Part shown: in pieces, positions 4,462-51,858 of the stretch
How positions within the stretch are numbered: position 1 is the stretch's first letter
How the letters are laid out: every line of letters begins with the position of its first letter
NCBI GenBank assembly: GCA_026414185.1
Contig: JAOAJL010000002.1
Location: forward strand, 11,075-75,074
Direction: 5' to 3'
DNA: 64,000 nt
Source of the DNA: Candidatus Micrarchaeota archaeon
GTDB taxonomy: Archaea; Micrarchaeota; Micrarchaeia; Anstonellales; Anstonellaceae
The notes under the pieces: model-generated
What the model was told of the DNA's origin: nothing
Seen by the model: the letters and a program-made list of their open reading frames with translations, nothing else
Database searches by the model: none
Made by a program: the position numbers and the translations under genes

Positions 4462-6765
4462 CTAGCGCTGCAGCTGCACCTCTGTCCAGCGGTTTTTGTT
4501 CTTGTCGCACAGGAGAAGATACACCGTTCCCTCCACGTTTTCAGCAAGCGCGGAGTCATGCGTTATGACAATCGTCTGCTCCACAACAGAGGGTATCTTC
4601 CTGCTTATTGCCTCTGAGAGCATGCCGACCGCCTCAGAGTCAAGGTTGTGGGTGGGCTCGTCAAGAATAAGGATGCCTATGTCCGGCGTGAGGACCGCCG
4701 CGAACGCTATCCTGAGGCTGAGGCAGAAGCAGGCGCGCTCTCCCCCGGATGCGACAGCATCAACATCCTTCCACTGCCCGCCCTTTTCCATGATGAAGCG
4801 GTAGTCCTTCTCATCAGCAGAAAGCATAACCCCGCCGTAGTCGGAGTAGGGATAAATTGAGGGCCAGATTTCGCGGAGGGCGGAGTTTATCTCCTCCACC
4901 AGGCTTGCGCGAAGCTCGGACTGGGCGGCGGCAAGCGCATTTTTGTATATTGCCATGCTCTCCGCAGCTCGCGCATATCCCTCAGCGATTCTTTTTCTCT
5001 CATTTATGCGGTCCGCCTCCTTTCTCGCAGAGGCGCAAAGCTCATCCAGCAGCTTTACCTGCGAAGAGACGGAGGAAAGCTCCGAAAAGAGCCGGGAGGA
5101 TTCAAGCCGAGCCTGCTCCGCCTCCTTTCTTGCTCTCTCATAAGCCTCCTCCGAAAAGCCCATTGCAGAAAGCTCCGAGGCAGCCTGCGCATATTTTGAA
5201 ATCGTGGCTTCAAGCGAATCAAACAGCCTCTTTTGAGCCACAAGCTCGTCAAGCGACTTTCTTGCCTTCTTTACTTTCGCGTCAAGCGCCTCAGCTTCCG
5301 CCTCAGCCGCAGAGAATTCCTCTTCAAGCTTTTTTACCTGTTTTTCCTTCTTGGCAATCTCCTGCAGATAGGGCGCCTCATCAACCCCCTCAGCAGAGAG
5401 CTTCTCAAGCTCGGAAGTCAAAAGGGCGGCTTCATAAAGCGCTTTCTGGCATGCCTCCAGCGCTTTTCTCTGCTTTGCCGCCTCCTCCTCCGCTTGCCCC
5501 AGCCTTTCTTTGTTTTGCGAAAGCATCCTTTTCTTTTCAGCGGCTATCTTCTCCTTCTTTTCAGGCGCAAGCTCGCTGCCGCAAACAGGGCAGTTTGCAG
5601 AGGCTGAAGAAAGCGCCTCAAGCGAGGCGGAAATCGCCTTCTGCTCCTCAGAGAGCCGCGCCCTCTCCGCCAAAAGGGAGTCAAGCCTGCCGGCGAGGGT
5701 CCGCAGCTTGGCTTCCATCTCCTCCTTGCCTTTCCCTTCAAGCAGGCTGGCAAGCTGCCTGGAAATCTGCTGAGCTTTTTTCGCCCTCTGGGCTGCGAGC
5801 TTTCTTCCGTTTTCAAGAACTGCAATTTCGCTTTTGACGGCTGAGATGGAGGCGGAAATCTCCTTGAGGCGCAGGCGCGCCTTGAAAACGAGTTTTTCCG
5901 CCTCTTCGTTTTCCTTCTCAAGCCGGCAAATGTCTTCCTCAGACGGCTTGCTTTTGCCGGAAACCTCTTTTTCAAGCCCAACTATTGCGCCTTGCAGGCG
6001 TTCGCACTCGCTCTTCTTTTTCCCGTAGGCTTCCCTTTGCTTTTCCAAGACGCCAAGCCCCTCCTCTTTCTGCGCAACAAACCTCTCCGCCTCAGCCTTC
6101 TGCGCAATGAGCCGCTGCTGCTCCGCCTTCTTCTCCTCAAGGGAGCGGAGGCGTTCGGCAAGCTCCTTTTCAAGCTGCGCAAGCCTCTCCGAATCGGAAG
6201 GGCTGGAAAGCTCCTGCGCCTTTTCAGAAAGACGGTAGTGCGCATTCTGAGCAGATTCGCGCGCCTCGTCAAACTGCCCAAGCCCAAGCAGCCAGTCAAT
6301 CTCAGTCTTCCGCTGGCGGGGGTTGAGGGACAAAAGATAGTCAATTCTGTTTTGCTCCGAGTAAATCGCGCGGGTAAAAAGCTCGTAATCCACGCCAAGC
6401 ACTCCAGCGACATAGTCGCTTGCCGCCTTTGCGCCCTTCTGCACAAGCCTTCCTTCAAGCCGAACTTCCGCCTCATGCGTCCTCTCGCCTATCCTGCGAA
6501 GCACTGCATAGTGCTTGCCATGGGCTTCAAACTCAAGTTCAACAGAAGCAACTTCCGCCTTGCTTGCCATGCTTATCAAATCAGACAGAGACTGGTCGCG
6601 CCTCTGCATTTTCGGGAAAGTCCCATAAAGCGCGAAGCATATCGCATCCAGAACAGAAGACTTGCCCGAGCCCATCCTGCCCAAAAGCACGCTGGTGCCC
6701 TTGCCGAACTTGAAGCTGGATGAAAGGTGCGATTTCCAGTTTGAAAGCGAAAGGGATATCAGCAC
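4462..6765 (-). CDS. rad50: DNA double-strand break repair ATPase Rad50
   Basis: 767 aa. Walker A is GRMGSGKSS. A long coiled coil carries a central CPVCG zinc-hook. The signature is ASGGERACFCLSLR and Walker B/D-loop is ILILDEPTHNLD. GTG start at 6765. Confidence 0.9.
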   Translation of the reverse strand: MLISLSLSNWKSHLSSSFKFGKGTSVLLGRMGSGKSSVLDAICFALYGTFPKMQRRDQSLSDLISMASKAEVASVELEFEAHGKHYAVLRRIGERTHEAEVRLEGRLVQKGAKAASDYVAGVLGVDYELFTRAIYSEQNRIDYLLSLNPRQRKTEIDWLLGLGQFDEARESAQNAHYRLSEKAQELSSPSDSERLAQLEKELAERLRSLEEKKAEQQRLIAQKAEAERFVAQKEEGLGVLEKQREAYGKKKSECERLQGAIVGLEKEVSGKSKPSEEDICRLEKENEEAEKLVFKARLRLKEISASISAVKSEIAVLENGRKLAAQRAKKAQQISRQLASLLEGKGKEEMEAKLRTLAGRLDSLLAERARLSEEQKAISASLEALSSASANCPVCGSELAPEKKEKIAAEKKRMLSQNKERLGQAEEEAAKQRKALEACQKALYEAALLTSELEKLSAEGVDEAPYLQEIAKKEKQVKKLEEEFSAAEAEAEALDAKVKKARKSLDELVAQKRLFDSLEATISKYAQAASELSAMGFSEEAYERARKEAEQARLESSRLFSELSSVSSQVKLLDELCASARKEADRINERKRIAEGYARAAESMAIYKNALAAAQSELRASLVEEINSALREIWPSIYPYSDYGGVMLSADEKDYRFIMEKGGQWKDVDAVASGGERACFCLSLRIAFAAVLTPDIGILILDEPTHNLDSEAVGMLSEAISRKIPSVVEQTIVITHDSALAENVEGTVYLLLCDKNKNRWTEVQLQR

Positions 6766-6830: not shown

Positions 6831-7355
6831 ATGCGGAAAAAAGCCCGCGGCAATGCCGGCGTTGAGGCGTTTATTGCGGATGAGATGCTTGCCAAGCTTG
6901 CTCGCTTCATGCGGATGGCAGGCGTCCGCGTGCTTCACATAAGGGGGATGGATGACGAGAGGATACTGCGGCTTGCCAAAAGCAAGGGCATGCCCCTTCT
7001 GACGTGCGACGAGCAGCTTTGGAAGAGATGCGAAAAGCGGGGCATAAAAAGCCTCCTTCTTTCCGACCAGCCGGTTTTTCACCAGCTTTTGCGCGTCTTT
7101 AGGAGCTTTCAGCTTCCCCCTCCAAGATTTTCCTGCTCAACCCTCTGCCCGCAATGCGGCGGCAGGCTCATAAAAGCGCACAAAAGCACGCTTTCGGCAA
7201 GGGTCTATCCAAGGGTGCTGAAAAAGCGCCGCCTTTTTTGGGAATGCGCAGGCTGCGGCAAGCTCTATTGGAGCGGAACGCACTACGAGAGGGTCCGCAG
7301 GCTCTTTTGGAGGGTAAGAAAGAAGATGGAGGCTAAAATATCTCCTCAAGGCTGA
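6831..7355 (+). CDS. Mut7-C/PIN-like RNase domain protein with C-terminal zinc ribbon (COG1656-like)
   Basis: FIADEMLAKLARFMRMAGVRV... N-domain typical of Mut7-C/DUF82, plus CPQCGG...CAGCGKLYWSGTHY zinc ribbon. Confidence 0.75.
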   Translation: MRKKARGNAGVEAFIADEMLAKLARFMRMAGVRVLHIRGMDDERILRLAKSKGMPLLTCDEQLWKRCEKRGIKSLLLSDQPVFHQLLRVFRSFQLPPPRFSCSTLCPQCGGRLIKAHKSTLSARVYPRVLKKRRLFWECAGCGKLYWSGTHYERVRRLFWRVRKKMEAKISPQG

Positions 7356-9406: not shown

Positions 9407-11104
9407 ATGGCAGGCATATTTTTAAAGTGGTCATACATACTAATAAGTGGGTGGATTATGGCATTCGTCATCTTCCCCACAAAGTCCGCCGTCAAAAGCG
9501 TCGGGCAGGCGCTTCATCTGGCGCTCAACGAAGCTGGCTTCGGGCAGGCGCTTTTCGCAACCTACGCCGACCGCTACTCAAAGAATGGCGCAGGAAGCCT
9601 TTATGTCTACAACCGCGCGATTGAAAGAAACAACATCGACCAAAACAGCAAGTCCAACTATTTTGTCTGCGTGCTTCATGAGGGCAACACAATCCGCGCC
9701 TTCATGACAAACCCCTCCGAGTCCCGCGAGGCAGGCAACTTTGACTTTGACAGGTATGAAGTCACCTTCACCTTCAAGGGCGGCTCAGGCGAAAAATTCG
9801 CCGCAGACGTGGTGCAATCCGCAAAGGCGCTCTCCTCCCTCAAGCCGGAAAACTCCTACCGCATAATAATCCACACGCACCTTGGGCAGCTTTCAGGGAT
9901 TTCCCTCAACAGCGGCGGCTCGGCAATGTCTGACGACGGGGTTTCTTCCGACAAGGCGCTTCTTCTGAACCTCATATACCACAACGTTGACTTCTGCGCG
10001 CTGACAAGCCACAACCACTTCCTTTATGGCGCATGGAACTCCTTCAACTACGAGGCGAAAAAATACGGCATACAGCTCATTGCCGGCTTTGAGGCGACAC
10101 TCCCCATCCACCAGTTTGAGCCATGGCTTTCCGGCACCGACGAGGGAAAGGTGCACAACCCCAACGGACCGCACGTAGTCCTTCTTTTCAGATGCCCCGA
10201 AACTGCGCAGGAATTCTGGAAGTGGTTTTTCAAGAAAAGGGGCACCTACAAATACGCGCCAAACGCATCGGAATTCGTGGAGCTCGCCAAGATATACGAC
10301 ATCATTGAGCAGCACTATTCCGATTCAGTAGCCCGCCTGATTGCCCATCCTGCCTGCGATGTGGACCTGCCTGATGTGGGCATCATCAACAGGGCGGCAA
10401 AAGGGGAGATTTCCTGGGCAGAGGTTGAGGGTTTCCTTGCTCGCTCGCAGGCGATAGGCATTTTCAACACCGTGCTTGACGAGGGAGAGCTTGATTTTGA
10501 CGCCTACAGAAGGCAGGTTAAGCAATGCGCCTTCTTTTCAGAGGCTGAAAAGGAGCGCAGACTCAAAAACATGGAGCAGACGGAAGTGAAAATCCGCGCC
10601 ATGGTCTTCAAGCACCTTGGAAGTCCAAAGCTGACCCCCAACAACATCAACATGGCGCTTGCCAAGGAATACTGCGGAAGGTTCAGCATCCTGCCATACG
10701 TTGATACCGACGCGCACAACTTCAACTGGCTTTACAGCAAAATCGGACCGTTTTTCATCCGGATAAAGGACATGGGGCTGATTGGCAGGGGGCACAACCG
10801 GCTCTGGCTGCCTTCTCTTCCGAGGACAAAGCCAACCGCAGAAGACATAGTTAGGTTCATGATAACCCCAATCCATTTGCCGAATGCCGAGTGGAAGGCG
10901 CAGCTTTTTTCCGAGATGAGGGATGGCAAGGTGCAGATAACGCAGGCGCGCCAGGACATCTCCTGGTTCCAAAAGGCGCTTGACGGCATAGAGAAGGCTT
11001 ATTACTATCTCAAGCAGGGCAAGGTGCTGCTGGAAGACACCATAAACTCAAGCAAGAGCCAGTCGCAGATACACATAAACTCCGGGCGAGGCTCAATACC
11101 CTAA
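9407..11104 (+). CDS. PHP-domain (polymerase/histidinol-phosphatase-like) metal-dependent phosphoesterase with uncharacterised N- and C-terminal extensions
   Basis: Ordered PHP-like motifs IIHTHLG, ALTSHNHF, IAGFEATL, PHVVLL, LIAHPA and YVDTDAHNF. About 140 aa N-terminal and about 120 aa C-terminal regions are without recognisable motifs. The start may be ATG 9458. Confidence 0.6.
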   Translation: MAGIFLKWSYILISGWIMAFVIFPTKSAVKSVGQALHLALNEAGFGQALFATYADRYSKNGAGSLYVYNRAIERNNIDQNSKSNYFVCVLHEGNTIRAFMTNPSESREAGNFDFDRYEVTFTFKGGSGEKFAADVVQSAKALSSLKPENSYRIIIHTHLGQLSGISLNSGGSAMSDDGVSSDKALLLNLIYHNVDFCALTSHNHFLYGAWNSFNYEAKKYGIQLIAGFEATLPIHQFEPWLSGTDEGKVHNPNGPHVVLLFRCPETAQEFWKWFFKKRGTYKYAPNASEFVELAKIYDIIEQHYSDSVARLIAHPACDVDLPDVGIINRAAKGEISWAEVEGFLARSQAIGIFNTVLDEGELDFDAYRRQVKQCAFFSEAEKERRLKNMEQTEVKIRAMVFKHLGSPKLTPNNINMALAKEYCGRFSILPYVDTDAHNFNWLYSKIGPFFIRIKDMGLIGRGHNRLWLPSLPRTKPTAEDIVRFMITPIHLPNAEWKAQLFSEMRDGKVQITQARQDISWFQKALDGIEKAYYYLKQGKVLLEDTINSSKSQSQIHINSGRGSIP

Positions 11105-11149: not shown

Positions 11150-11223
11150 GCCCTCGTGGTATAACTTGGATAGCATGCGAGCTTGCGGAGCTTGAGATCA
11201 GGGTTCAAATCCCTGCGAGGGCG
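11150..11223 (+). tRNA. tRNA-Arg (anticodon GCG), no intron
   Basis: Hand-folded. Acceptor GCCCTCG/CGAGGGC, anticodon arm CGAGC-TTGCGGA-GCTTG, T arm CAGGG-TTCAAAT-CCCTG, discriminator G. The D stem has one A:C mismatch. Confidence 0.85.
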
Positions 11224-11270
11224 CTTAATATGATGTTGAACGCCCAAGTTCCGCAAAAGAGGTGTTGCCA

Positions 11271-21315: not shown

Positions 21316-21417
21316 TTCTGTCTTTGGGTTTCTAAAGCATTAAAAAGCAATACTTTGGGCGTTTTTTCCACCCCATCCATCGTTAAGCTTATAATGCTTG
21401 AAAGGGCATCTGAAAGC

Positions 21418-22230
21418 ATGAGAGCCAGCCTTCCCATTTTCTGCCTGCTTTTTTTTGCCTGGGGAGCCTCCGCAGTGCAGATGATCTCGCCCCTCTCCTC
21501 AGAGATTTCAAACGGCGCGTTGTTCGCCGTGGGCAATGTAGGTCCTGGGCAGACTTTTGCAGTAGTGGTAAATCCGAAAGTTGAGGCTGGCGGCAGATGG
21601 GGGCTTGGCGGAGCATATGACCAGCTTTATGCGGCTTCCCTGCCATCTGGCTGGTCCTCCACCCCCTCAAAGCTCTACGCAAACCCGTTGCAGGCTGACA
21701 TCACAGTGCCGAAAGACGCACCAGACGGGCAGTATGAGGTTGAGCTTGTGCTGCATGATGAATCAGGGGCAGCAGGGCTCGGAGACGACGTAAGATTCAG
21801 GCTGGGCGTCATAGTCAGCCGCGACGTGATGGACATGCGCGCTGAGCCGCCCTCAATCACCACGGGAGCAAGCCAGCCTGCGCGCTACTCAATCACGGTG
21901 CTGAACAAGGGCATAGCAAACGACGTTTTCAGCATAAGCTCCAAAGGGGTTTCAAACTGGGAATTCTCCCGAAGCATCTACATCCCTTCCGGGACGAGCC
22001 GCACCCTCACCTACGAAGTCGTCGGAGATGAGGAAGAGGACTACAAGGTGGAGCTGCTGGCGCGCTCCTCCTCGTCCGAAAAGATATCCGCAAAGCAGGA
22101 GGTTTCGCTGAGGGTGAAAACGGACCTTCTTTCTGATTTGCGGGCTACAAACAGGGGGGTTCTTCTTCTTCCGCTTCCGGAAGCGCCAGCCTATTTTGCG
22201 GCGGGATTGCTTTCAAACCTTTTCAAGTGA
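21418..22230 (+). CDS. secreted surface protein with C-terminal hydrophobic tail
   Basis: I start at ATG 21418 (MRASLPIFCLLFFAWGASAV signal peptide), about 27 nt after TATA-like AAGCTTATAATGC. Beta-rich CARDB/NEW3-like composition. Ends in the hydrophobic LLLPLPEAPAYFAAGLLSNLFK. Confidence 0.7.
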   Translation: MRASLPIFCLLFFAWGASAVQMISPLSSEISNGALFAVGNVGPGQTFAVVVNPKVEAGGRWGLGGAYDQLYAASLPSGWSSTPSKLYANPLQADITVPKDAPDGQYEVELVLHDESGAAGLGDDVRFRLGVIVSRDVMDMRAEPPSITTGASQPARYSITVLNKGIANDVFSISSKGVSNWEFSRSIYIPSGTSRTLTYEVVGDEEEDYKVELLARSSSSEKISAKQEVSLRVKTDLLSDLRATNRGVLLLPLPEAPAYFAAGLLSNLFK

Positions 22231-23946: not shown

Positions 23947-24037
23947 TGCGGCTGCCGGGATTTTCAGCCAAAAGCAGTTTTGAACCCGGGTCGCAAGCTT
24001 GGGAAGCTCGAATCCTACCAGGCTGGACTACAGCCGC
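23947..24037 (-). tRNA. tRNA-Gly (anticodon CCC) with an 18-nt intron in the T-loop
   Basis: Reverse complement reads GCGGCTG-TA-GTCC-AGCCTGGTA-GGAT-T-CGAGC-TTCCCAA-GCTTG-CGAC-CCGGG-[TTCAAAACTGCTTTTGGCTGAAAAT]-CCCGG-CAGCCGC-A. The T-loop region is 25 nt instead of 7 (plus coordinates 23960-23984). TATA-like box about 31 nt upstream. Confidence 0.85.
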
Positions 24038-26106: not shown

Positions 26107-26236
26107 GCGACCGTAGTCTAGCCTGGTTAGGATTCGAGATTGCCAGGGCTGGCAGGCAGTTTTTTGCGGAATCGGCCGCAAGAATCTCGCGAGCCGGGTT
26201 CAAATCCAGAATTTGGTGAAAATCCCGGCGGTCGCA
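26107..26236 (+). tRNA. tRNA-Gly (anticodon GCC) with two introns (38 nt at 37/38; 18 nt in T-loop)
   Basis: GCGACCG-TA-GTCT-AGCCTGGTTA-GGAT-T-CGAGA-TTGCCA-[38-nt intron 26146-26183]-A-TCTCG-CGAG-CCGGG-[TTCAAATCCAGAATTTGGTGAAAAT, 26199-26223]-CCCGG-CGGTCGC-A. The intron contains TGGCA, complementary to the anticodon-loop TGCCA (BHB-like). Confidence 0.85.
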
Positions 26237-26270
26237 TTGCACTGTGCCCTTTTGCTCCAGCGCAAGCAAT

Positions 26271-26283
26271 CATTTTAATATTC
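26271..26283 (+). promoter_or_regulatory. TATA-like box of the prepilin-like operon (leaderless first gene)
   Basis: CATTTTAATATTC centred about 27 nt upstream of ATG 26304. Confidence 0.5.
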
Positions 26284-26303
26284 TATTTGGGTATTTCTCA
26301 AAC

Positions 26304-26966
26304 ATGGGCAAAGAGGGTTTTATCTTCTCGCTTGACGCCTTCGTGGCTTTCACCCTCATCATGATGACAATAGGGCTTCTGATTTTCACGATAGGAACTC
26401 CAAAGCCCTACTACCCGTCCCTTGAACAGACGCACCAGCTTGCGCACGACACCCTGCGGGTGCTTGCCACAAGCTCGGACAGCCCATCAAACCCGACTTA
26501 TCTTGAGCAGATAATAGGCAGAAGCGGCTTGCCGGTCAATGAGATAATGTATCGCGTGGCAGGGGGCAGGGAAACATCCGCGGAGGGCGGAGGGGTGCGA
26601 TACCGCCCCATCATCCCGAAAGGCTATGGCTTCCGGCTGGAAACCTACGAATTTGGCGCATTCCCCTCCGAGAAGCAAAGGTGGGTTGTGCTTTATGACT
26701 CAAGCGAGGATGTGCTTTCCGACAGATACGGAAAGAAATTTTCAAAGGTCCAGGCATCCGCAACCGCCTTCGGCTCAATATACGCAGTTGCGCCGTTCCA
26801 GGGCAAATCCCCCTTCTGCTACCTCTCTTGCAACGGCTTTGACCCTTCCAACCCGCCCTCGTACAACCTCGTGCCGTGCAACGCAACTCCCTGCGACTTT
26901 CCCATTTCAAATTTCATGGCTGGCAAAAACACCATCCAGCTTGTAAGGTTCGTGGTTTATGCGTGA
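26304..26966 (+). CDS. prepilin-like protein 1 (class III signal peptide), 220 aa
   Basis: Start ATG 26304. N-terminus MGKEG/FIFSLDAFVAFTLIMMTIGLLIFTI. The mature part is unrecognised and has 4 Cys near the C-terminus. Confidence 0.7.
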   Translation: MGKEGFIFSLDAFVAFTLIMMTIGLLIFTIGTPKPYYPSLEQTHQLAHDTLRVLATSSDSPSNPTYLEQIIGRSGLPVNEIMYRVAGGRETSAEGGGVRYRPIIPKGYGFRLETYEFGAFPSEKQRWVVLYDSSEDVLSDRYGKKFSKVQASATAFGSIYAVAPFQGKSPFCYLSCNGFDPSNPPSYNLVPCNATPCDFPISNFMAGKNTIQLVRFVVYA

Positions 26967-28644
26967 TTTGATGAAACCAAAACTCCGCCCCGGATGCATG
27001 CGCGGCTTTTTCTTCACAGTCATGGCGCTTGCTCTCCTTTCCTTCATGCTGCTAAGCGTGCAGCTTTGGGTGCGGACATTTGAGCAGTCGGACGCGCGCG
27101 CTTCACAGCGCTTCAAAGGCGAGGCGATGAGGATTGTACTTTCCTCCATCTCTGACAAGGCAATCTCTGATTTTGCAAATGCCTCTGCCTTCTATGCTCT
27201 ACACAGGCTTGTCAATTACTCCGCATACGAAGGGCTTGCGCAGGCGGATTCCTCAGACCCGCGCAACAACGGCACGGGGATGGTGGAGAAAGGCGTCTAT
27301 CTGCTTATGAGGAACGGCACCTTTGCCGCCGGCTCAAAGGACATAGTCTATACCACTGAGGAGATGGAAGCTTACACATTCGCCGCGTGGCAGAAGAGGA
27401 TTCGCTCCGCGGCAAATGTCCTTGGCTTCAACGCAAGCTTCTCCGAGCCCAGAAACTTCTCCTTTAGGCAGATTGACCACTGGACAGCAGGGGTTTCCTT
27501 CCAGATGGACATGGACATAACGGACTTCGCAGGGACAATGCGCCAAAACAAGACACTATACGCCAACGCCACCATCAGCCTCAGCGGTTTTCTTGACCCA
27601 TATATATTCCGCAACGACATGCGCCAGCGGGTTCCCGCGCCTGCGCCGACCGCGGTTGCTCAAAGGCAGGTTTTCAGGAATCCGAAATACAACTCTGCCT
27701 CTGATGTTGCGCCTCGGCTTGTGGTTGACCAGTTCGGCTCCGACGGAGAGGGCTATGGGTGGTTCTACGGACCGATAACAAACCAGTATCCAGACCAGAT
27801 AAACGAGTCTGCTTTGGGCAAGCTCTCCCAATACATCCTTGTCCATGGCTGGGATGACAGCCTTCCGGTCTACGCGGACTTGTATGGCGCCGTGATAGTG
27901 ACCGACCCGCCGGTCTGGGTGGATGGAGGCACAGAAACGATAGGCAACTGCGTCTACAACGTTTCCACCCAAAGCCGCTGCCTCAACTGCATCCGCCGAT
28001 ACGTCCCTACAACAGCGGGCTGCCCGAACAGGCCAGATGAGATTCTCTCGGAGAACAGAACGGACAAGCCGATGATAGTGGTGACAAGAAGCGCCACTGA
28101 TGAAAACTGGCTGGATTCTATCCCATGGGTCTACAGGGCAGGGCTGCCCTCCCCCGAAGACAGGCAGAAGTTTGTCCTCATTGACAACGAATACGCCCTC
28201 CCAGAGCAAAAGCTCTTTGGCAGCCACAGGCTCTATGACATAACTGCCCTGCGCGACATGGCAATATGCGGTTTTTACGTCCCATCGGAGCAGGCTCCAT
28301 CCTTCTTCCAGCGCATGCTCGCCTTCCCTCCTTCCGAAAGCTCGCATCCCCTCGGGATTGAAACCTTTGTGGTGGGGCAGTGGGCTGGGGGGAAGCTTGA
28401 CCAGTCGCATGACGGGCTTTCTCGCCTTGACTGGGAATTTTATTCCGCACAAGCGCCAGCCACGCAGCCGGCAAGGATAAAGGGTATGCCTGGATGCAAA
28501 AGCGTCCAGATGTGCGACATTTCCAACACGGAGCCGGTCAAAGAAGGGGTGGGCAAGTTCCGGCTTTCCATCGATGCCATAAAAAGATACGGGGTTGGGA
28601 AAATAGCATGCAACAGCCAGAATTCCGCCCCATGCGACAAGTGA
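26959..28644 (+). CDS. large prepilin-like protein 2 (561 aa), candidate pilus tip/adhesin subunit
   Basis: ATG overlaps the gene 1 stop by 8 nt. N-terminus ...PGCMRG/FFFTVMALALLSFMLLSVQLWV. Many N-x-S/T sequons and a Cys cluster (GNCVYNVSTQSRCLNCIRRYVPTTAGCPN). The competing antisense ORF is rejected. Confidence 0.75.
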   Translation: MRDLMKPKLRPGCMRGFFFTVMALALLSFMLLSVQLWVRTFEQSDARASQRFKGEAMRIVLSSISDKAISDFANASAFYALHRLVNYSAYEGLAQADSSDPRNNGTGMVEKGVYLLMRNGTFAAGSKDIVYTTEEMEAYTFAAWQKRIRSAANVLGFNASFSEPRNFSFRQIDHWTAGVSFQMDMDITDFAGTMRQNKTLYANATISLSGFLDPYIFRNDMRQRVPAPAPTAVAQRQVFRNPKYNSASDVAPRLVVDQFGSDGEGYGWFYGPITNQYPDQINESALGKLSQYILVHGWDDSLPVYADLYGAVIVTDPPVWVDGGTETIGNCVYNVSTQSRCLNCIRRYVPTTAGCPNRPDEILSENRTDKPMIVVTRSATDENWLDSIPWVYRAGLPSPEDRQKFVLIDNEYALPEQKLFGSHRLYDITALRDMAICGFYVPSEQAPSFFQRMLAFPPSESSHPLGIETFVVGQWAGGKLDQSHDGLSRLDWEFYSAQAPATQPARIKGMPGCKSVQMCDISNTEPVKEGVGKFRLSIDAIKRYGVGKIACNSQNSAPCDK

Positions 28645-34771: not shown

Positions 34772-35527
34772 ATGGCGATATACAGGATGCGGAATCTTTC
34801 CTCAATCTGCAGCTCTTCCGACCCGCGTGACAGGCAGATTGCTGTGTTTGCACTCAAAAACAACATAAGGCGCCTGTCCTACAAGGACTACAAATACCTC
34901 TACTGCCTTCTTTGCGTGGAAGAAATAAGCCTCGCCGTGGGCGGCAGCCCGATGCAGGAAAAAGAAAAAGCCATGCGGCTTTGGCTTGAGGCTGCGCGCC
35001 TTGACAGGAGGATGGAGCTTACAAAGAAAGCCATCCGGCCCTCCTGCCTCCAAGCGGGGCTTTTCAGAAAGATAAAGCCTGTGCTTGAAAAAGAGCTTCG
35101 CCCGCAGAAGCTCTCACTGCTCCTGGAGGTGCGGGAAGAGATGGGCGCAGCCCTCTCCAAGCTCTTTGTTTCAAGCGTAAAGGGGGAAGCGCACGAGCAG
35201 TTCTGGAAAAACATAACAACAGCAATGCTCCTTCTTGACACCCTCGCAGACCTCTTCAAAGACAGGGCAGAAGGGCTGCTGAAAAAGATTGACTTGCGGG
35301 GCGTTGCCCTTCTTTTGCGCAAGCTCGCCAAAAGCTCTGTCTGCGCAGTAAGGCACATCGGGCTTTTCAGAAGCATCAGGCTTCTTTTCCACCCAGTGGT
35401 CATGACCATAAAGGGCGGCTTTGAAAGCGAAACTGCCAAAGAAAAGCAAAGGGAAATCTTCCCTGCCGCCCCTATGGAAAGTACTCCAAAAGCTTACGAA
35501 TGTCAGGCGCCTGGCTGCCGAACTTAG
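34772..35527 (+). CDS. hypothetical helical protein (251 aa)
   Basis: ORF with TATA-like CATATTTTATAAC about 35-40 nt upstream and AGAGGA before the ATG. No family recognised. The 3' end overlaps the convergent gene by 56 nt. Confidence 0.55.
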   Translation: MAIYRMRNLSSICSSSDPRDRQIAVFALKNNIRRLSYKDYKYLYCLLCVEEISLAVGGSPMQEKEKAMRLWLEAARLDRRMELTKKAIRPSCLQAGLFRKIKPVLEKELRPQKLSLLLEVREEMGAALSKLFVSSVKGEAHEQFWKNITTAMLLLDTLADLFKDRAEGLLKKIDLRGVALLLRKLAKSSVCAVRHIGLFRSIRLLFHPVVMTIKGGFESETAKEKQREIFPAAPMESTPKAYECQAPGCRT

Positions 35528-36100: not shown

Positions 36101-36208
36101 TGGGATCGTAGGGATTTGAACCCTAACATGCAGGTGTATTCTGTTGCCCGCGCCTTTGCGCAGGCGAGATCTGGAGCCTGCCGCGCTACCAAGTTACGCC
36201 ACGACCCC
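36101..36208 (-). tRNA. tRNA-Trp (anticodon CCA) with 35-nt canonical intron
   Basis: Reverse complement reads GGGGTCG-TG-GCGT-AACTTGGTA-GCGC-G-GCAGG-CTCCAG-[35-nt intron, plus coordinates 36136-36170]-A-CCTGC-ATGT-TAGGG-TTCAAAT-CCCTA-CGATCCC-A. TATA-like box about 30 nt upstream. Confidence 0.85.
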
Positions 36209-36247: not shown

Positions 36248-36778
36248 CTATGCTGCGAACGCCTCGTAAAGCATCACAAGGGTTATGAGCTTGGCAAGGA
36301 AAATGACGGCTGCCAGCTTTGCCAAGTCAATAGTGGTCATCTCCATGAGCGCAAGCCCAAGCTCATCCGGCAGGGGAAGCCCAAAGACGAAAAAGCCCCC
36401 AATCGGAAAAGCGTAGGAGAACCGCTCAAACCTATCCCGGAGCCTCTGAAGAAGGGCGCGCGAGTTTTTCTCAAGGGTTTTTCTTACCGCCCAAAAAAGG
36501 GCGCAGTCCACAAAGGTGGCGGAAAGGCAGGCGACAAGCGCAACCTGCTGAGGATTGCCCATCTGCATCTGTTCCAGTATGACCACCATGGCAAAGGGCG
36601 TGGTCGCGCCAAGCGTGTAAAAGGCGCCGGCAAAAGCGGCGCCGGCAACCCCAAGCCCGCGCAAGTATTCCGCAACCGCCCTGTCATATCCGAATATGAC
36701 AAGGGCAAAGCTGGCGAGTATGAAAGCTATCGCAATCTGCAAGCGCAAATCAAGGCGGAAATGCTTGGCAAAAAGCAT
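36248..36778 (-). CDS. integral membrane protein (about 176 aa, 5-6 TM)
   Basis: I start at ATG 36778 (MLFAKHFRLDLRLQIAIAFIL...). The upstream part of the track ORF is Arg/Cys-rich and overlaps the transketolase end. Confidence 0.6.
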   Translation of the reverse strand: MLFAKHFRLDLRLQIAIAFILASFALVIFGYDRAVAEYLRGLGVAGAAFAGAFYTLGATTPFAMVVILEQMQMGNPQQVALVACLSATFVDCALFWAVRKTLEKNSRALLQRLRDRFERFSYAFPIGGFFVFGLPLPDELGLALMEMTTIDLAKLAAVIFLAKLITLVMLYEAFAA

Positions 36779-36792
36779 GGAAACGCACGCGC

Positions 36793-38796
36793 CTATGCCC
36801 TCTCTTTTCTTCGCACCAGTTCCTTTGCCCTGGCAGCGATGTGCTCTGCGGCAAGCCCGAATTTTTTGACAAGCTCCCAAGGCGCGCCAGACTCGCCGAA
36901 GCTGTCTTCTACCCCTATCCTGCCAAAAGCAATCGGCTTTTTGCACTCCTCAAGTATTATGGCGGCAACAATGTTTCCAAGCCCGCCCTTCTGGTGCTCC
37001 TCGGCAGTCAGGACCGCTCCGGTCTGATTCGCCGCGTCTATTATCGCCTGCCGGTCTATCGGCTTTACGGTTGAAACATTCACCACCCGCGCCTTTATCC
37101 CGAACTCCTCCTTCAGTATCCAGGCAGCCCGCATTGCCTCGGGCACCTCGGGTCCGCATGCGATTATGGCAATGTCCTCATTCTCGTTTTTCGCTTCTGT
37201 TGAAAGCGCATGCTCAAATGCGTCCATAAAGCGCGGCTTCTCCCCCCGGTATCTGATTACTGTCGCCACTCCGTATTTGTAGGGCGTTTTCTCGTCCGTG
37301 ACGACTGGCGTGGCTTCCCTCGCATACCTAATGTATTGCGGCCCCGCAGTTTCAATCATCGCCCTCGTGGCTTTTCTGGTTTCCACCGCGTCAGCGGGCA
37401 CAAGCAAGCCCATATTCGGCAGGCCGGCAATCACAAATATCTCCTCAAGCGCCTGGTGTGTCGCCCCATCAGGCCCAACAGACACCCCGCCGTGCGCGCC
37501 GACTATTTTCGCATTCCAGTTGCCGTAGGCGACAGTTGTTCTGACTTGGTCAAGCGCCCTGCCTGCGGCAAAAACCCCGTATGTCCCGAAGAAGGGTATC
37601 TTGCCCTCCTTGGCAAAGCCAGCCGCCACGCACGTGCCCGACTGCTCTGCTATGCCCATGGAGAAAAACCGGCCCTTCCTTTCAGGCTTTCCCTCGTAAA
37701 ACAGGTTTATGCAGATTGAGCCTGATATGTCTGCCCCCAGCGCAACAATTGCAGGATTTTCGTTTTGCTGAAGCTCCTCGCCAAAGCCAAAGCGCGTCGC
37801 CTTCATCTCCACCTTCATCTTCTCCTGCGCGTTCCACCAGTAGTTTTTGGAAAACTTCGGCATGGAATCCTCAATCTGCTTTTCCACCTTCCTCTGATGC
37901 GCCTCCGCAATGGCAAACATCTCCTCTTTCGGCAGGTATTCAACCCCAAGCTCGGCAAGCGCCTTACCAAGCTCCTCCTTGTTTGGCGCCTTCCCATGCC
38001 AGCCGGCGAGGTTCTCCATGAAAGAAACCCCCTTGCCTTTCACGGTTCTGCATATGATGGCTGTTGGCTTTCCTTTTGTCCTGCCCGCCTGCTCAAAAGC
38101 GGAAAGCAGAGCCTCAACGTCGTGCCCGTCGCACTCAATAACGTGCCAGCCAAATGCACGGTATTTCTCTGCAATCGGCTCTATGTTCATGACCTCACTT
38201 ACCGGTCCGTCTATCTGCAGGTTGTTTTTGTCCACTATTCCAACAAGGTTGTCAAGCTTGTAGTGGGCAGCTTCCATGGCAGCCTCCCAAATCTGCCCCT
38301 CCTGCTGCTCGCCATCCCCCATTAGGCAGAAAACGCGGTAATCCCTGCCGTCAAGCTTCGCGGCAAGGGCATCGCCAACCGCTATTGAAAGCCCCTGCCC
38401 AAGCGAGCCGCAGGAAGCCTCAATTCCAACGCACTTTTTTCTGTCAGGATGCCCCTGGAAAGGGGAGCCAAGCTTGCGCAGGGTGGCAGTCTGCTTCACA
38501 TCAAAGTAGCCGCAGTAGCCAAGCGCAACATACCAGGCAGGCGCCTTGTGGCCGCCAGAGAAAAACAGCCTGTCGCGCCCCTCCCAGCCAGGCTCAGAGG
38601 GCTTGTGGCGCATCACCCTCAGATAAAGGCAGGCTACGATATCCATGCAGGAAAGCGTCCCGCCAGAGTGCCCGCTTCCCGCGCAGCAAAGCGAGATGAG
38701 GGCATAGCCGCGCATCTCAGCCGCAGCCTTTCTTATCTGTTCAGCAGAATAATTCTTTTCCTGCCCGCTTCTGTCAATTATCCCCATGCCAATCAC
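36793..38796 (-). CDS. tkt: transketolase (full-length, N- and C-terminal halves fused)
   Basis: 667 aa. GSGHSGGTLS and GDGEQQEGQIWEA TPP motifs, plus pyrimidine-binding and C-terminal domains. The start overlaps the upstream stop by 4 nt. Confidence 0.9.
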   Translation of the reverse strand: MIGMGIIDRSGQEKNYSAEQIRKAAAEMRGYALISLCCAGSGHSGGTLSCMDIVACLYLRVMRHKPSEPGWEGRDRLFFSGGHKAPAWYVALGYCGYFDVKQTATLRKLGSPFQGHPDRKKCVGIEASCGSLGQGLSIAVGDALAAKLDGRDYRVFCLMGDGEQQEGQIWEAAMEAAHYKLDNLVGIVDKNNLQIDGPVSEVMNIEPIAEKYRAFGWHVIECDGHDVEALLSAFEQAGRTKGKPTAIICRTVKGKGVSFMENLAGWHGKAPNKEELGKALAELGVEYLPKEEMFAIAEAHQRKVEKQIEDSMPKFSKNYWWNAQEKMKVEMKATRFGFGEELQQNENPAIVALGADISGSICINLFYEGKPERKGRFFSMGIAEQSGTCVAAGFAKEGKIPFFGTYGVFAAGRALDQVRTTVAYGNWNAKIVGAHGGVSVGPDGATHQALEEIFVIAGLPNMGLLVPADAVETRKATRAMIETAGPQYIRYAREATPVVTDEKTPYKYGVATVIRYRGEKPRFMDAFEHALSTEAKNENEDIAIIACGPEVPEAMRAAWILKEEFGIKARVVNVSTVKPIDRQAIIDAANQTGAVLTAEEHQKGGLGNIVAAIILEECKKPIAFGRIGVEDSFGESGAPWELVKKFGLAAEHIAARAKELVRRKERA

Positions 38797-40122: not shown

Positions 40123-41592
40123 ATGGGAAAGCAGATGGGGCAGCTTGCCTTGGCGTTTTCTCTTCTGCTTCTTTTTCAGCCCGCCTTTTGCGCCCAGGCG
40201 CCCATTGAGCGCTTTGCCAATCTCACTTTTGAGCCAGACCAGCAAGTAAGCTTCCATTTCCTCCTGCCGCAAAGGACGCACGCGATAGTCAAGGCGGACG
40301 GAGCCGAAATCTACGTCATTGAAGCCGTTTCGGGCAAAACTCTCCGCGAAGCCAAGGAGATAGAGGCTCTTCTTGTGGAAGATGCCAAAAGCCGCACCAA
40401 GCTGGAGGCGATTCTCTCCTCCGCATTGTCATTTCCAGACGAGGTCTCCTCTGCAAAAGCAGAGGCAGAAAAAAAGTGCATGCAGTATACCGGAACAGAT
40501 TTGCACGATTGCACTGACAAGCATTCCTGTATCCTTTCCTGCATGTCGGTGCCGCTGTGCTCCACTCCCCTTTATTCGGACGGGTTTTGGGAGGCAATAC
40601 TTGACTGGACAACCTCGCGCAAGGCTTTTGACGCGGCGATTGGAGAATACCGGATGCAGCTCAACGCGCTCTTATCCAACGCATCTTCAATAGAAAGCGC
40701 GGAGGCGGTCCTGATGAGGCTTGAAGCCCTTTCGCTCAACATGTCGGCAAACCCTATTTTCCTAAACAGGACTGACGAGGGGTGCGCGGCAGGCGGCACG
40801 GTGCGCTGCTTTGAGTTCTGCCAAAAGATTGATTACTCAGCCTCCAGGATAAGGCAGGAAAAGCAAAACCTCGCCCTGCTCAAGGCAGCGCTTTCGGAGA
40901 TTGCCTCTCAGCAGTCGCGGGCAAAGGCGATAGCAGAGGCAAGCAGGCGCCAAGACGAGTATGTTTCAAGTCGCGGAAGAGATTTTGAAAAGCTGAGGAT
41001 AAGGACTCTGTCTGAGGCAAAAAAGCTCAGGGAGAGGGCTGAGAAGCTTTCTGGAAAGGTTGAAGACGGGCAGCTTGAAATGCAGCTTGCCGAGCTGGAG
41101 AATCTCTCAAGGCAGATAGCCTTGCTTGGCAAAAGCAGCCTTTACCGGCAGGCGTTTTCCGCAGAATCCTCCTTCAACCAAAAGCACAGTGAGGTTTCGG
41201 CGAGGATTGAGCAGGACGAGAAAGCCCATAATGAGGCGCAAAAGCTTCTTTCAGACATAAGCAACCAGCTTGAGCGCTCTTCCTGGCTTTTGGACGATTC
41301 ATCAAAAAGCAAATACGCTGCCATCTTGGCAGATTACAGCAAAAACCTCTCTTCCCCCCAAACCCCAAAGCAACTTTCCGAGGCAAGAGAGGGCATGCGG
41401 CTGCTCAAATCGCAGCTTTCGGAGGAAATCGCCGAGAGGGCGGCAAGCCAACAGCCTCAGCTTTCCCCGCCAGGCGCAGCTAGTGGGGATTCCAGGCAGT
41501 CTGCCGAGGCAGCGCCAGCCGTTCCTTGCCTGCCAGGGCTTTTCATCTTGCTTGCGCTTTTTGCTCAGCCGCGCAGGTCATATGGGAAGTAA
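40123..41592 (+). CDS. secreted surface protein, largely helical, with C-terminal PGF-CTERM-like anchor
   Basis: Signal peptide MGKQMGQLALAFSLLLLFQPAFCAQA. A Cys-rich segment (KKCMQYTGTDLHDCTDKHSCILSCMSVPLC). A long Ala/Glu/Ser/Leu-rich helical region. Tail AVPCLPGLFILLALFAQPRRSYGK. Confidence 0.7.
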   Translation: MGKQMGQLALAFSLLLLFQPAFCAQAPIERFANLTFEPDQQVSFHFLLPQRTHAIVKADGAEIYVIEAVSGKTLREAKEIEALLVEDAKSRTKLEAILSSALSFPDEVSSAKAEAEKKCMQYTGTDLHDCTDKHSCILSCMSVPLCSTPLYSDGFWEAILDWTTSRKAFDAAIGEYRMQLNALLSNASSIESAEAVLMRLEALSLNMSANPIFLNRTDEGCAAGGTVRCFEFCQKIDYSASRIRQEKQNLALLKAALSEIASQQSRAKAIAEASRRQDEYVSSRGRDFEKLRIRTLSEAKKLRERAEKLSGKVEDGQLEMQLAELENLSRQIALLGKSSLYRQAFSAESSFNQKHSEVSARIEQDEKAHNEAQKLLSDISNQLERSSWLLDDSSKSKYAAILADYSKNLSSPQTPKQLSEAREGMRLLKSQLSEEIAERAASQQPQLSPPGAASGDSRQSAEAAPAVPCLPGLFILLALFAQPRRSYGK

Positions 41593-42368: not shown

Positions 42369-42770
42369 ATGAAAAGAGACTTCCGCTTCCTTGAGCACAC
42401 GGCAGACATAATGTTTGAGGCGTACGGCAAAAGCTACCCGCAAGCCCTTGAAAATGCCGCCCTCGCGCTTTTTTCAGTCATAGGCAAAGCCAAGCCGAAA
42501 AAAAGGGCGGTGCTTTCGCTCTCGGCACACAGCCTTGAGGAGTTGACCGTGCAGGCGCTTTCCGAGCTGCTTGCGTATATGGATATCCACCAGGTTGTGT
42601 TTGCCAAGATGAAGGTGCTTGACTTTGACCCCTCCCGCAATTGGCTTGAGATGGAGGCGTGGGGCGAAAAAGTGCGCCCGCGCGACCACGTCAAGGCGGT
42701 GACATATCATGAGCTTATGGTCAAAAACGAGGATGGAAAATGGACGATAAGGATTCTGCTTGATGTTTAG
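42369..42770 (+). CDS. archease (RtcB tRNA-ligase cofactor)
   Basis: FRFLEHTADIMFEAYGKS N-terminal signature and KAVTYHEL near the C-terminus. Confidence 0.9.
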   Translation: MKRDFRFLEHTADIMFEAYGKSYPQALENAALALFSVIGKAKPKKRAVLSLSAHSLEELTVQALSELLAYMDIHQVVFAKMKVLDFDPSRNWLEMEAWGEKVRPRDHVKAVTYHELMVKNEDGKWTIRILLDV

Positions 42771-49953: not shown

Positions 49954-50155
49954 GCGGACGTAGTATAACCTGGCTAGTATCTTGGCCTTCCACCGGGAAA
50001 CCCATAAGGATTTCCTAAGGCGGGTTTCCGCGCCATCTTCCAAGCGGGGTTCCCCCAGGAAATGGCTTCGGAAGAAAGTCAATGGTCCGGGTTCAAAAGA
50101 TTTGGGCTGCCTCCCAAAATTTGGCAGCCCCTGTCTGCCAATCCCGGCGTCCGCA
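49954..50155 (+). tRNA. tRNA-Gly (anticodon TCC) with two introns (84 nt at 37/38; 44 nt in T-loop)
   Basis: GCGGACG-TA-GTAT-AACCTGGCTA-GTAT-C-TTGGC-CTTCCA-[intron 49993-50076]-A-GTCAA-TGGT-CCGGG-[51-nt T-loop region 50092-50142]-CCCGG-CGTCCGC-A. The intron's 3' part, GGAAG, pairs with anticodon-loop CTTCC. TATA-like GTATTTATATTGG about 30 nt upstream. Confidence 0.8.
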
Positions 50156-50837: not shown

Positions 50838-50964
50838 ACCCTCCCTTTTTTGCTTATGGCAATAAAAAAGTTGACCTTACTTGGCCTTCCCACTCATCAT
50901 CACCATTTATAAACCATTTGCCACAAAAAGAAGGCAGTTGTGCTTTTGTTGAGAGGTGAAAAAC

Positions 50965-51846
50965 ATGAGGATGGCATTTGTAGCATTCGTTTTGCTCGTG
51001 GCGCCTGCCATATTAAGCGCAGGAGTGCTGACGCAGATGACAACTGCCTTTTCATATGTCGGCTATCCGTGCAACAGCCACGGCATAGACACCATCAGGC
51101 TGGCAAATGCGCCTGGCGATGTTCCTTGCGACCCTAATACTGACTGGTATTATTACTGTGCCGAGGTCATCCGCCTCAACTCAAGCAGAATCAACTCTTT
51201 TGGAGGACCTGGGGACGTCCTTCCCGGCAACTATTACTTCACCACTATCTATATTGACGTCATAGGCAGGACCGTGGAGCTTAACGAAACCCTCTCTGGA
51301 GTACAGGACAGAAACGCGCCAAAGCACCTCTGGCGCCCGCGCGTTTTTGCTAAACTGCCGACAAGGTCATGCTTCAACTGGGAATACCTGGAATTCAACA
51401 ACCCGCAAAGCATCATAGCATTTATTCCCGCAGGCAACAACTCCACAGGGCAGAAAGGCGGCTTTTACCTCACAAACGAATCCATCGGATTTTACACTCC
51501 TGCGGACTCAATGGAAGCGGTTGCCGGCGGCGAAACGGACATGCCCTCTGTGGATGTGAAATCAGACGCAGGAATAATTCTGAAGGAAATCGGCACAGAG
51601 CCTGCCTACGCAGCAATACGCCTTTATAACCTTGGCGCGCAGGGCTGGGGCTTCAAAAAGTCCAACTCCGCCTTTGACATGATGTTTTACAAGTGGACGG
51701 GCTGGAACCAGTTCCAGACTGTGCCCATGCCGTTTACCACCGAGCGCGGAACCTACTTCCCCAAGAACCCAACCTACAACCAGACAAACTTTGACATCCA
51801 GCTTTACTCCAGCCTTTCAGCAGGACCGCGGGCGTCAAAAAGATAA
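50965..51846 (+). CDS. secreted hypothetical protein (293 aa)
   Basis: ATG 50965 lies 5 nt after GAGGTGA. Signal peptide MRMAFVAFVLLVAPAILSAG. Rich in Asn/Thr/Tyr/Gly with paired Cys near the N-terminus. No family recognised. Confidence 0.7.
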   Translation: MRMAFVAFVLLVAPAILSAGVLTQMTTAFSYVGYPCNSHGIDTIRLANAPGDVPCDPNTDWYYYCAEVIRLNSSRINSFGGPGDVLPGNYYFTTIYIDVIGRTVELNETLSGVQDRNAPKHLWRPRVFAKLPTRSCFNWEYLEFNNPQSIIAFIPAGNNSTGQKGGFYLTNESIGFYTPADSMEAVAGGETDMPSVDVKSDAGIILKEIGTEPAYAAIRLYNLGAQGWGFKKSNSAFDMMFYKWTGWNQFQTVPMPFTTERGTYFPKNPTYNQTNFDIQLYSSLSAGPRASKR

Positions 51847-51858
51847 AAAAGGCGCCTC

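Follow-up and report, generated by a model that had tools for sequence, protein, structure and literature searches.

What interrupts the T-loops of the three tRNA-Gly genes in a 64-kb stretch of DNA from a Candidatus Micrarchaeota archaeon (contig JAOAJL010000002.1, positions 11,075 to 75,074), and how did the same position come to be occupied in each of them? We conclude, with a probability of roughly 85%, that the inserts are protein-spliced archaeal tRNA introns of the bulge-helix-bulge (BHB) type, lying between T-loop positions 59 and 60. The whole 64-kb stretch is called the window below, and its tRNA genes were searched for with ARAGORN and the Rfam model RF00005. The genes concerned and two internal controls are as follows.

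23947–24037, minus strand: tRNA-Gly(CCC) gene, 91 nt, one intron; read directly, and called tRNA-Gly(ccc) by ARAGORN once spliced
26107–26236, plus strand: tRNA-Gly(GCC) gene, 130 nt, two introns; RF00005 at 34.1 bits, and ARAGORN once spliced
49954–50155, plus strand: tRNA-Gly(UCC) gene, 202 nt, two introns; called tRNA-Gly(tcc) by ARAGORN with both inserts out
11150–11224, plus strand: tRNA-Arg(GCG) gene, uninterrupted, normal T-loop, internal control; ARAGORN and Rfam
36101–36208, minus strand: tRNA-Trp(CCA) gene, canonical anticodon-loop intron (~35 nt), normal T-loop, internal control; Rfam

Interrupted tRNA-Gly genes in the window

The T stem CCGGG/CCCGG is common to all three tRNA-Gly genes. 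Their T-loops start with TTCAAA and end with T, and measure 25 nt (CCC), 25 nt (GCC) and 51 nt (UCC) rather than the usual 7, which corresponds to inserts of 18, 18 and 44 nt, respectively. TTTGG is present in every insert, with two copies in that of tRNA-Gly(UCC). Direct reading thus bears out the initial annotation on the coordinates of the three genes, their shared T arm, the lengths of the inserts and the TTTGG motif. It had also described tRNA-Arg and tRNA-Trp as free of such an insert, and the T arms of both are indeed normal: GGGTTCAAATCCC.

Standard tools overlook these genes. On the unspliced window, ARAGORN reports tRNA-Arg alone, and the one further gene that Rfam recovers at the gathering threshold is tRNA-Trp. 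When short stretches were compared with RF00005, tRNA-Gly(GCC) scored 34.1 bits with inserts of 40 and 19 nt, and neither tRNA-Gly(CCC) nor tRNA-Gly(UCC) passed. Deleting the T-loop and anticodon-loop inserts in silico led ARAGORN to report tRNA-Gly(ccc), (gcc) and (tcc), all with perfect cloverleaves, from sequences that had yielded nothing in their raw form. A T-arm motif scan of the window found five tRNA genes in all, with no further hidden tRNAs and no uninterrupted tRNA-Gly within the 64 kb.

Since ARAGORN and Rfam at the gathering threshold miss all three genes, automatic annotation would leave every GGN codon without a tRNA. We expect the same gap in many metagenome-assembled genomes of DPANN and Asgard archaea, and estimates of completeness based on the tRNA complement are biased where tRNA-Gly genes are missed in this way.

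The genes also carry signals expected of transcription units. By direct reading, an A/T-rich TATA-like box precedes each of the three by approximately 30 nt, and a T-run closely follows it. The box reads TTATAATT for tRNA-Gly(CCC), where the T-run follows immediately 3′, and ATTTATATT for tRNA-Gly(UCC).

Geometry and machinery of the proposed splicing at position 59/60

Each tRNA-Gly gene was scanned, without positional bias, for the archaeal BHB motif, consisting of an outer helix (h), a 4-bp central helix (H), 3-nt bulges that are cut after the second base and an inner helix (h′). The T-loop insert is the top candidate in tRNA-Gly(CCC) (H 4/4, h 5, h′ 0). In tRNA-Gly(GCC), the corresponding insert comes second (H 4/4, h 6, h′ 4), behind an intron at the canonical position 37/38, and in tRNA-Gly(UCC), an 84-nt canonical intron comes out on top (H 4/4, h 5, h′ 4). 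The introns are listed below.

23961–23978, minus strand: tRNA-Gly(CCC) 59/60 intron, 18 nt, A CTGCTTTTGGC TGAA AA, relaxed hBH; BHB scan and minimum free energy (MFE) fold
26205–26222, plus strand: tRNA-Gly(GCC) 59/60 intron, 18 nt, U CCAGAAUUUGG UGAA AA, strict hBHBh′; BHB scan
50098–50141, plus strand: tRNA-Gly(UCC) 59/60 'long-class' intron, 44 nt; BHB scan, alignment, covariance model R1 (49.3 bits) and MFE fold
26146–26183, plus strand: tRNA-Gly(GCC) 37/38 canonical intron, 38 nt, strict hBHBh′; BHB scan H 4, h 5, h′ 6, and ARAGORN i(40,38)
49993–50076, plus strand: tRNA-Gly(UCC) 37/38 canonical intron, 84 nt, strict hBHBh′ with H CTTC/GAAG; the best BHB of its gene

The two canonical introns, both situated one base 3′ of the anticodon, are additional to those in the initial annotation.

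The T-loop inserts share one arrangement. The 5-bp T stem forms h in all three, and the 5′ strand of H is T54-T55-C56-A57 (TTCA), whose partner lies 3–6 nt before the 3′ end of the intron. This partner is TGAA in tRNA-Gly(CCC) and tRNA-Gly(GCC), where it pairs at 4/4 positions, and TGCC in tRNA-Gly(UCC). A58-A59 and the first intron base make up the 5′ bulge, and AA followed by U60 the 3′ bulge. In tRNA-Gly(CCC), the bulges read AA|A and AA|U, and the MFE fold contains the T stem and the TTCA/TGAA helix. The inner helix of tRNA-Gly(GCC) is CCA/TGG, with TGG drawn from TTTGG. When the CCC and GCC inserts were shuffled, a 4/4 H helix appeared in approximately 2% of trials.

With the cloverleaf restored and the motif located, the proposal that the inserts are introns sharing one non-canonical T-loop position stands, as does the expectation of BHB-type folding, which is strict in tRNA-Gly(GCC) and relaxed in the other two. 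The range of positions 56 to 60 given initially can be narrowed, because BHB geometry selects 59/60 among the options that the A-run allows; by this rule, the T-loop introns of all three genes would lie at 59/60. The helix that had been suggested between the exon's CAAA and the intron's TTTGG can be drawn on paper but does not hold up, as it would misplace the splice sites for a BHB and most homologous introns lack TTTGG. The actual H helix is TTCA paired with TGAA or TGCC.

Several observations weigh against our interpretation. The A-run in the T-loop makes 57/58, 58/59 and 59/60 indistinguishable by sequence. tRNA-Gly(CCC) has no in-register h′ (0 pairs), which makes it a relaxed hBH motif, and with its inner stem out of register, the 5′ site falls in a 5-nt bulge or loop. 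In tRNA-Gly(UCC), H has only 2/4 pairs (C56-G and A57-U), U54·C and U55·C being mismatched, and ViennaRNA places both splice sites in a symmetric 6 × 6 internal loop. Finally, a search of approximately 50 open reading frames (ORFs) in the window with Pfam and NCBIfam, together with tblastn using the splicing endonuclease EndA of M. jannaschii, found no EndA. This probe, verified as PDB 1a79, picks up the EndA of ARMAN-2 (Ca. Micrarchaeum acidiphilum) at 3e-34. The same methods found no EndA in the loci fetched from relatives.

If the inserts are spliced as we propose, the T stem of the precursor would act as outer helix, and U54-U55-C56-A57 would pair with four intron nucleotides (UGAA in CCC and GCC, UGCC in UCC) to form the central helix. 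The bulges, A58-A59 with the first intron base on one side and the terminal intron AA with U60 on the other, would each be cut by the splicing endonuclease after their second base. RtcB, helped by archease, would then ligate A59 to U60 and restore the universal 7-nt loop UUCAAAU, and the intron would presumably be freed as a circle. In tRNA-Gly(UCC), a highly stable intron rod would support the 2-bp central helix: h′ has 3 pairs (GAU/GUC), and the fold has an MFE of −30.7 kcal/mol (z −4.4, ViennaRNA). We infer from the sequences that all three introns are cleaved and their exons ligated.

The only recognizable gene of the splicing machinery in the window is the following.

42369–42770, plus strand: archease, activator of the tRNA-splicing ligase RtcB; PF01951, E 2.8e-33

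RtcB was not found among the approximately 50 window ORFs by Pfam or NCBIfam. A 489-aa ORF near archease (40123–41592) has no match in Pfam or NCBIfam and is not RtcB.

The combination of a strict motif in tRNA-Gly(GCC), an hBH motif in tRNA-Gly(CCC) and a weakened H in tRNA-Gly(UCC) supports the initial suggestion of a broad-specificity endonuclease, which the latter two motifs need. The endonuclease gene lies outside the window, so its type can be judged from the phylum only; by analogy with other Micrarchaeota, it is probably of the broad-specificity epsilon2 type. The epsilon2 EndA, a three-unit protein with an ARMAN-specific loop, is documented in the Micrarchaeota ARMAN-1, ARMAN-2 and Mancarchaeum, and both epsilon2 and (alpha-beta)2 enzymes tolerate relaxed motifs (PMC3239211, PMC5829648). 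The three genes would provide defined substrates (strict, hBH and weakened-H) for a broad-specificity endonuclease of Micrarchaeota.

Conservation of the motif and the long-class intron family

To place these introns in a wider context, we scanned one genome per GTDB species with the pattern CCGGGTTCAAA-N(14-44)-AATCCCGG-NNNN-CGCA, which is Gly-specific by design and leaves the four bases opposite TTCA free. This yielded 60 loci (L001–L060), comprising two bacterial chance matches and otherwise archaeal tRNA-Gly genes. Around 20 of them come from Micrarchaeota, and the others from Aenigmarchaeota, Pacearchaeota, Woesearchaeota, Nanohaloarchaea, Altiarchaeales, many Asgard lineages, Thermoplasmata and Hadarchaeota. 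Genomes of the Heimdall/Hod type have a recognizably homologous 29-nt intron in common in their tRNA-Gly(CCC).

TTCA pairs at 4/4 positions in 48 of the 64 pattern instances, against 1/64 expected by chance. The 3′ strands of these full helices are TGAA (33 instances), TGGA (12), TGAG (2) and TGGG (1), and the two bacterial chance matches pair with TTCA at only 0–1/4 positions. In-register h′ pairs total 156 across the 64 instances, against 40.6 ± 7.5 in shuffled introns. Among relatives, intron length varies from 16 to 48 nt and the sequence is free, while the cleavage geometry is kept.

The site is not confined to glycine. In a generic search of the fetched loci, we found candidate 59/60 introns of 35–70 nt in tRNA-Ser(GGA) twice, in tRNA-Cys and in one unassigned tRNA. 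They lie in loci of Aenigmarchaeota, Pacearchaeota and Micrarchaeota, at L002 (minus strand, ~3354), L064 (plus, ~1585), L005 (plus, ~6260) and L019 (plus, ~3968). Their occurrence in Ser, Cys and another tRNA marks 59/60 as a general hot spot rather than a Gly-specific site, and the hot spot is dictated by the geometry of TTCA and the T stem.

The 44-nt intron of tRNA-Gly(UCC) is a member of a conserved, structured family from Micrarchaeota that has been found so far only in tRNA-Gly T-loops. These long-class introns are defined by a length of 39–48 nt, an end in CUGNC AA, a U54·C mismatch, an h′ starting with G:C, and a hairpin (hp1) whose loop, YUGRC, pairs with a downstream GYCAG. A second scan, of metagenomes for introns ending in C-AAT, brought the family to 24 distinct sequences, and its helices were scored on a MAFFT alignment of 22 members. 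The family is represented in genes of all three isoacceptors, and every member from a named genome belongs to Micrarchaeota. A search with the covariance model R1 across 425 kb of the window and related loci found none outside tRNA-Gly T-loops. The members are located as follows.

Window 50098–50141, L007, L023, L045, L049, L051, L057, L060, L061: long-class introns
L063–L068, L070, L072, L074–L084: long-class introns, further loci

The window intron aligns over its full length, with 49.3 bits against R1, and has all the helices of the family. Within H, A57-U and C56-G are present in 22/22 members and U54 always faces C. The third pair is UA in 15 members, UG in 3 and unpaired in 4, and the introns of the window, L061 and L057 form just 2 bp of H. 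The h′ helix is 90% paired with compensatory changes at 3/4 pairs, hp1 is 92% paired with compensatory changes at 4/5 pairs, and the pairing of the hp1 loop with GYCAG reaches 94.5%, one of its positions being GC in 14 members, AU in 4 and CG in 2. Controls with a slid register pair at only 23–49%.

In the window, the stable inner stem GGGCUGCC/GGCAGCCC alternates with the hairpin UUUGGG/CCCAAA. Comparison with L061 reveals a G-to-C change that is matched in both strands, turning UUUGGG/CCCAAA into UUUCGG/CCGAAA and GGGCUGCC/GGCAGCCC into CGGCUGCC/GGCAGCCG. Because hp1 and the loop–GYCAG pairing (b-b′) cannot form together as simple hairpins, the intron would adopt either an H-type pseudoknot or two alternative states.

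Two other candidate features were rejected. The hairpin GGCAG/CUGCC (b′/b″), which is perfect in the window and L061, is mismatched in 15/22 members and so is not a general family trait. CUGA at the 3′ end of the intron might recall a box C/D guide RNA, and direct reading shows no C box.

A rival view is that the 44-nt insert is not removed by a simple one-step 59/60 cut. It might instead be excised in two steps, or through an alternative fold in which the GGCAG/CUGCC hairpin lies directly against the AAU bulge and the T stem and creates an HBh′-like site by coaxial stacking. The 2-bp H of the window, L061 and L057 would suit such a scheme, as would the mutual exclusion of hp1 and b-b′, both of which show compensatory changes, and the intact GGCAG/CUGCC of the window and L061. 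In addition, a brute-force BHB scan for two-intron or nested solutions returned one alternative, a second BHB-like candidate with the same 5′ site that would excise 30 nt (H 3, h 3, h′ 5). The remaining 14 nt, however, contain no better BHB, and the two-intron solution was set aside. The b′/b″ hairpin is itself poorly kept in the family, the in-register h′ covaries family-wide, the rod fold dominates the MFE, and relaxed motifs are within the reach of the enzymes mentioned above. We therefore regard a route other than the one-step cut as improbable.

It has also crossed our minds that the long-class intron is more than a passive insert, given its U54·C-weakened helix, its switch or pseudoknot and its homogenization across isoacceptors within a lineage. 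This idea is tentative and rather doubtful. If it were true, the fold might time or gate T-arm maturation, be a functional stable circular RNA or copy itself between tRNA-Gly genes.

Spread of the introns and genomic context

Synteny allows the introns to be compared gene by gene. The order Elp3–Gly(CCC)–ADP-PFK-like gene–…–Gly(GCC)–two ORFs recurs across many Micrarchaeota loci, as does purB–Gly(UCC), and this conserved gene order identifies the tRNA-Gly genes at these positions as orthologous. In the window, purB (adenylosuccinate lyase) adjoins tRNA-Gly(UCC). Its product matches a protein from a 'Candidatus Micrarchaeota archaeon' metagenome-assembled genome at 100% identity, and its relatives are all from Micrarchaeota/Anstonellaceae. 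The syntenic tRNA-Gly genes have a 59/60 intron in nearly all loci, with differing sequences and lengths.

There are clear exceptions. In L062, whose purB is 83% identical to that of the window, tRNA-Gly(UCC) has a plain TTCAAAT T-loop, and its exons match those of the window save for compensatory changes in the acceptor stem. In L064, the GCC and CCC genes are uninterrupted and the UCC gene is interrupted. L078 has an uninterrupted CCC gene with another T arm (GCGGGGTTCGATTCCCCG), which follows the ADP-PFK-like gene rather than standing beside Elp3 and is thus non-syntenic.

Two of the purB loci show local rearrangements. In L062, the closest relative (1214–1335 and 2040–2335), approximately 1 kb separates purB from the tRNA-Gly(UCC) with the uninterrupted T-loop, an NTP-transferase/HepT toxin-antitoxin pair having been inserted in between, and beside purB there is tRNA-like debris, …GCCAATCCCGC…, then …CAGCCGCA and a T-run. 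The debris looks like the decayed remnant of an intron-containing copy. In L061 (1–215), tRNA-Gly(UCC) is inverted relative to purB by comparison with window positions 49954–50155, its exons and T-loop intron being otherwise orthologous. At 37/38, both UCC genes have an intron (84 nt in the window, ~100 nt in L061), and the two sequences are unrelated.

The similarity of the introns tracks lineage, not isoacceptor. On the contig of one relative, the GCC and UCC introns are 91% identical, and the CCC intron of L023 and the GCC intron of L078 are 98% identical, whereas orthologous introns from other lineages are 55–75% identical. The L081 contig has two long introns, in GCC and CCC genes, that share a stem variant found in no other. 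Within the window, identity between the CCC and GCC introns is 72% across their 18 nt, largely through the constrained TGAAAA tail, and the UCC intron is only 34–36% identical to either; judged by their sequences, the three are not recent copies of one another.

One way to account for a shared position is a single gain that predates the divergence of the Gly isoacceptors, followed by vertical inheritance. In its favour, DPANN, Asgard, Thermoplasmata and Hadarchaeota genomes have tRNA-Gly introns at this same site, and several Micrarchaeota have one in all three isoacceptors. Such a history is nevertheless unlikely in view of the presence/absence polymorphism among close relatives, the closeness of the paralogous pairs relative to orthologues and the 59/60 introns in Ser, Cys and other tRNAs, which are found both in our loci and in PMC3239211. 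Taken together, presence or absence among close relatives and the lineage-wise likeness of introns favour copying between isoacceptors over one ancient gain. Of the two histories offered by the initial annotation, ancestral gain followed by gene duplication is thus contradicted by the uninterrupted L062 UCC and L064 GCC and CCC genes and by the lineage-shared variants, and movement among paralogues is retained.

Introns have been gained, lost, resized and copied among the three tRNA-Gly genes, and the position has been maintained across Micrarchaeota. Either gene conversion, acting through the 17-nt T arm that is identical in these genes, or 'intron transposition' in the style of Thermoproteales could be the mechanism. 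Copying in the relatives is limited to paralogues with an identical T arm, which makes gene conversion an equally good mechanism. These clean cases of presence/absence and of paralogue-to-paralogue homogenization bear on how archaeal tRNA introns spread.

A further concern is that the three loci are decayed duplicates, or pseudogenes, with functional uninterrupted tRNA-Gly genes elsewhere in the genome. The window offers a view of 64 kb, two of the three genes go unrecognized by standard finders, and uninterrupted tRNA-Gly genes do exist in some relatives. Decay is, however, hard to reconcile with exons that are all intact and fold into perfect cloverleaves once spliced, with compensatory acceptor-stem differences between relatives, or with interrupted genes that are syntenic in many Micrarchaeota. 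The inserts have also preserved their BHB geometry and helices that covary, the genes are flanked by signals resembling promoters and terminators, and Micrarchaeota genomes of 0.66–1.08 Mb with 27–48 tRNA genes (PMC5864196) leave little room for spares. We consider it very unlikely that these are pseudogenes.

Least credible of all, to the point of being nearly negligible, is that mature tRNAs retain the inserts in an expanded T-loop: an insert of 18–44 nt would break U54-A58 and the T-loop/D-loop contacts used by all elongator tRNAs, insert length (16–48 nt) and sequence vary around a constant cleavage geometry, and the uninterrupted orthologue reads exactly TTCAAAT.

The reading of the inserts as BHB introns at 59/60 has direct precedents, and the novelty implied initially was overstated. 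The position is a listed non-canonical archaeal intron position (PMC4090602) and was cleaved in vitro in a tRNA of Micrarchaeota in 2011 (PMC3239211). In ARMAN-2, 56% of tRNA genes are disrupted (PMC3239211), and its pre-tRNA-Cys(GCA) has a 13-nt hBH intron at 59/60 that was cut in vitro by the three-unit epsilon2 endonuclease (Fujishima et al. 2011, PMC3239211). It shares with our genes the phylum, the site and the T stem as outer helix, and with tRNA-Gly(CCC) also the hBH form. Our case differs in that it concerns Gly rather than Cys, the introns are longer and the full set of three isoacceptors for one amino acid is hit; the window also has one strict hBHBh′ and one weakened-H intron, and its host enzyme is assigned by phylum. 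Pre-tRNA-Pro(GGG) of ARMAN-2, with introns at 53/54 and 59/60 (PMC3239211), resembles the window in combining a strict hBHBh′ T-loop intron at 59/60 with a second intron in the same gene. Both of its introns are in the T-loop region, whereas the second intron in the window is at the canonical 37/38.

Thermoproteales, known for non-canonical introns and large-scale intron transposition (Sugahara 2008 and Fujishima 2010, summarized in PMC4090602), likewise include 59/60 among their listed positions, and very similar introns recur there in distinct tRNA genes within a genome, implying copying at the DNA level. They belong to another superphylum and have an (alpha-beta)2 enzyme with a Crenarchaea-specific loop, and the copying seen in Micrarchaeota relatives is by contrast confined to paralogues sharing an identical T arm. 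The split and tri-split tRNA-Gly of Caldivirga maquilingensis (PMC4390854) also show a whole synonymous Gly family subject to one type of BHB-resolved disruption, but as trans-spliced pieces with a common 3′ half rather than three separate cis-spliced genes (PMC4390854).

More broadly, DPANN, Asgard and Hadesarchaea are known to be rich in non-canonical introns (PMC5829648, PMC11291895). As in the window, non-canonical or multiple introns are frequent and tRNAs are missed by standard finders in the Asgard Atabeyarchaeia and Freyarchaeia (PMC11291895) and in DPANN and Hadesarchaea (PMC5829648). Our scan found Gly 59/60 introns in those same Asgard, DPANN and Hadesarchaea groups. The two papers give overall statistics, and we found in the text read no mention of a Gly-specific 59/60 intron or of the long-class family.

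The Gly 59/60 introns are therefore real but unsurprising, being a known kind of intron in a lineage known for it, and the established picture of archaeal tRNA splicing is unchanged. What is mildly new is the breadth of the tRNA-Gly 59/60 intron across archaeal phyla and the possibly pseudoknotted long-class intron.

The remaining genes of the window fit its origin. Elp3, Rad50 and class III signal peptide genes are typically archaeal. At the left end, HerA (DUF87) and Rad50-like genes (810–2528 and 4462–6765) and a Mut7-C RNase-domain gene (6831–7355) belong to the usual archaeal repair repertoire and have nothing to do with the introns. Neither Pfam nor NCBIfam assigns a family to around 10 sizeable ORFs, which lie at the following positions.

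9407–11104, 21355–22230, 26244–28644, 34772–35527, 36248–36946, 40123–41592, 50956–52560, 59160–59846: ORFs without a Pfam or NCBIfam family

The two ORFs located 3′ of tRNA-Gly(GCC), at 26244–26966 and 26959–28644, are syntenic across Micrarchaeota loci.

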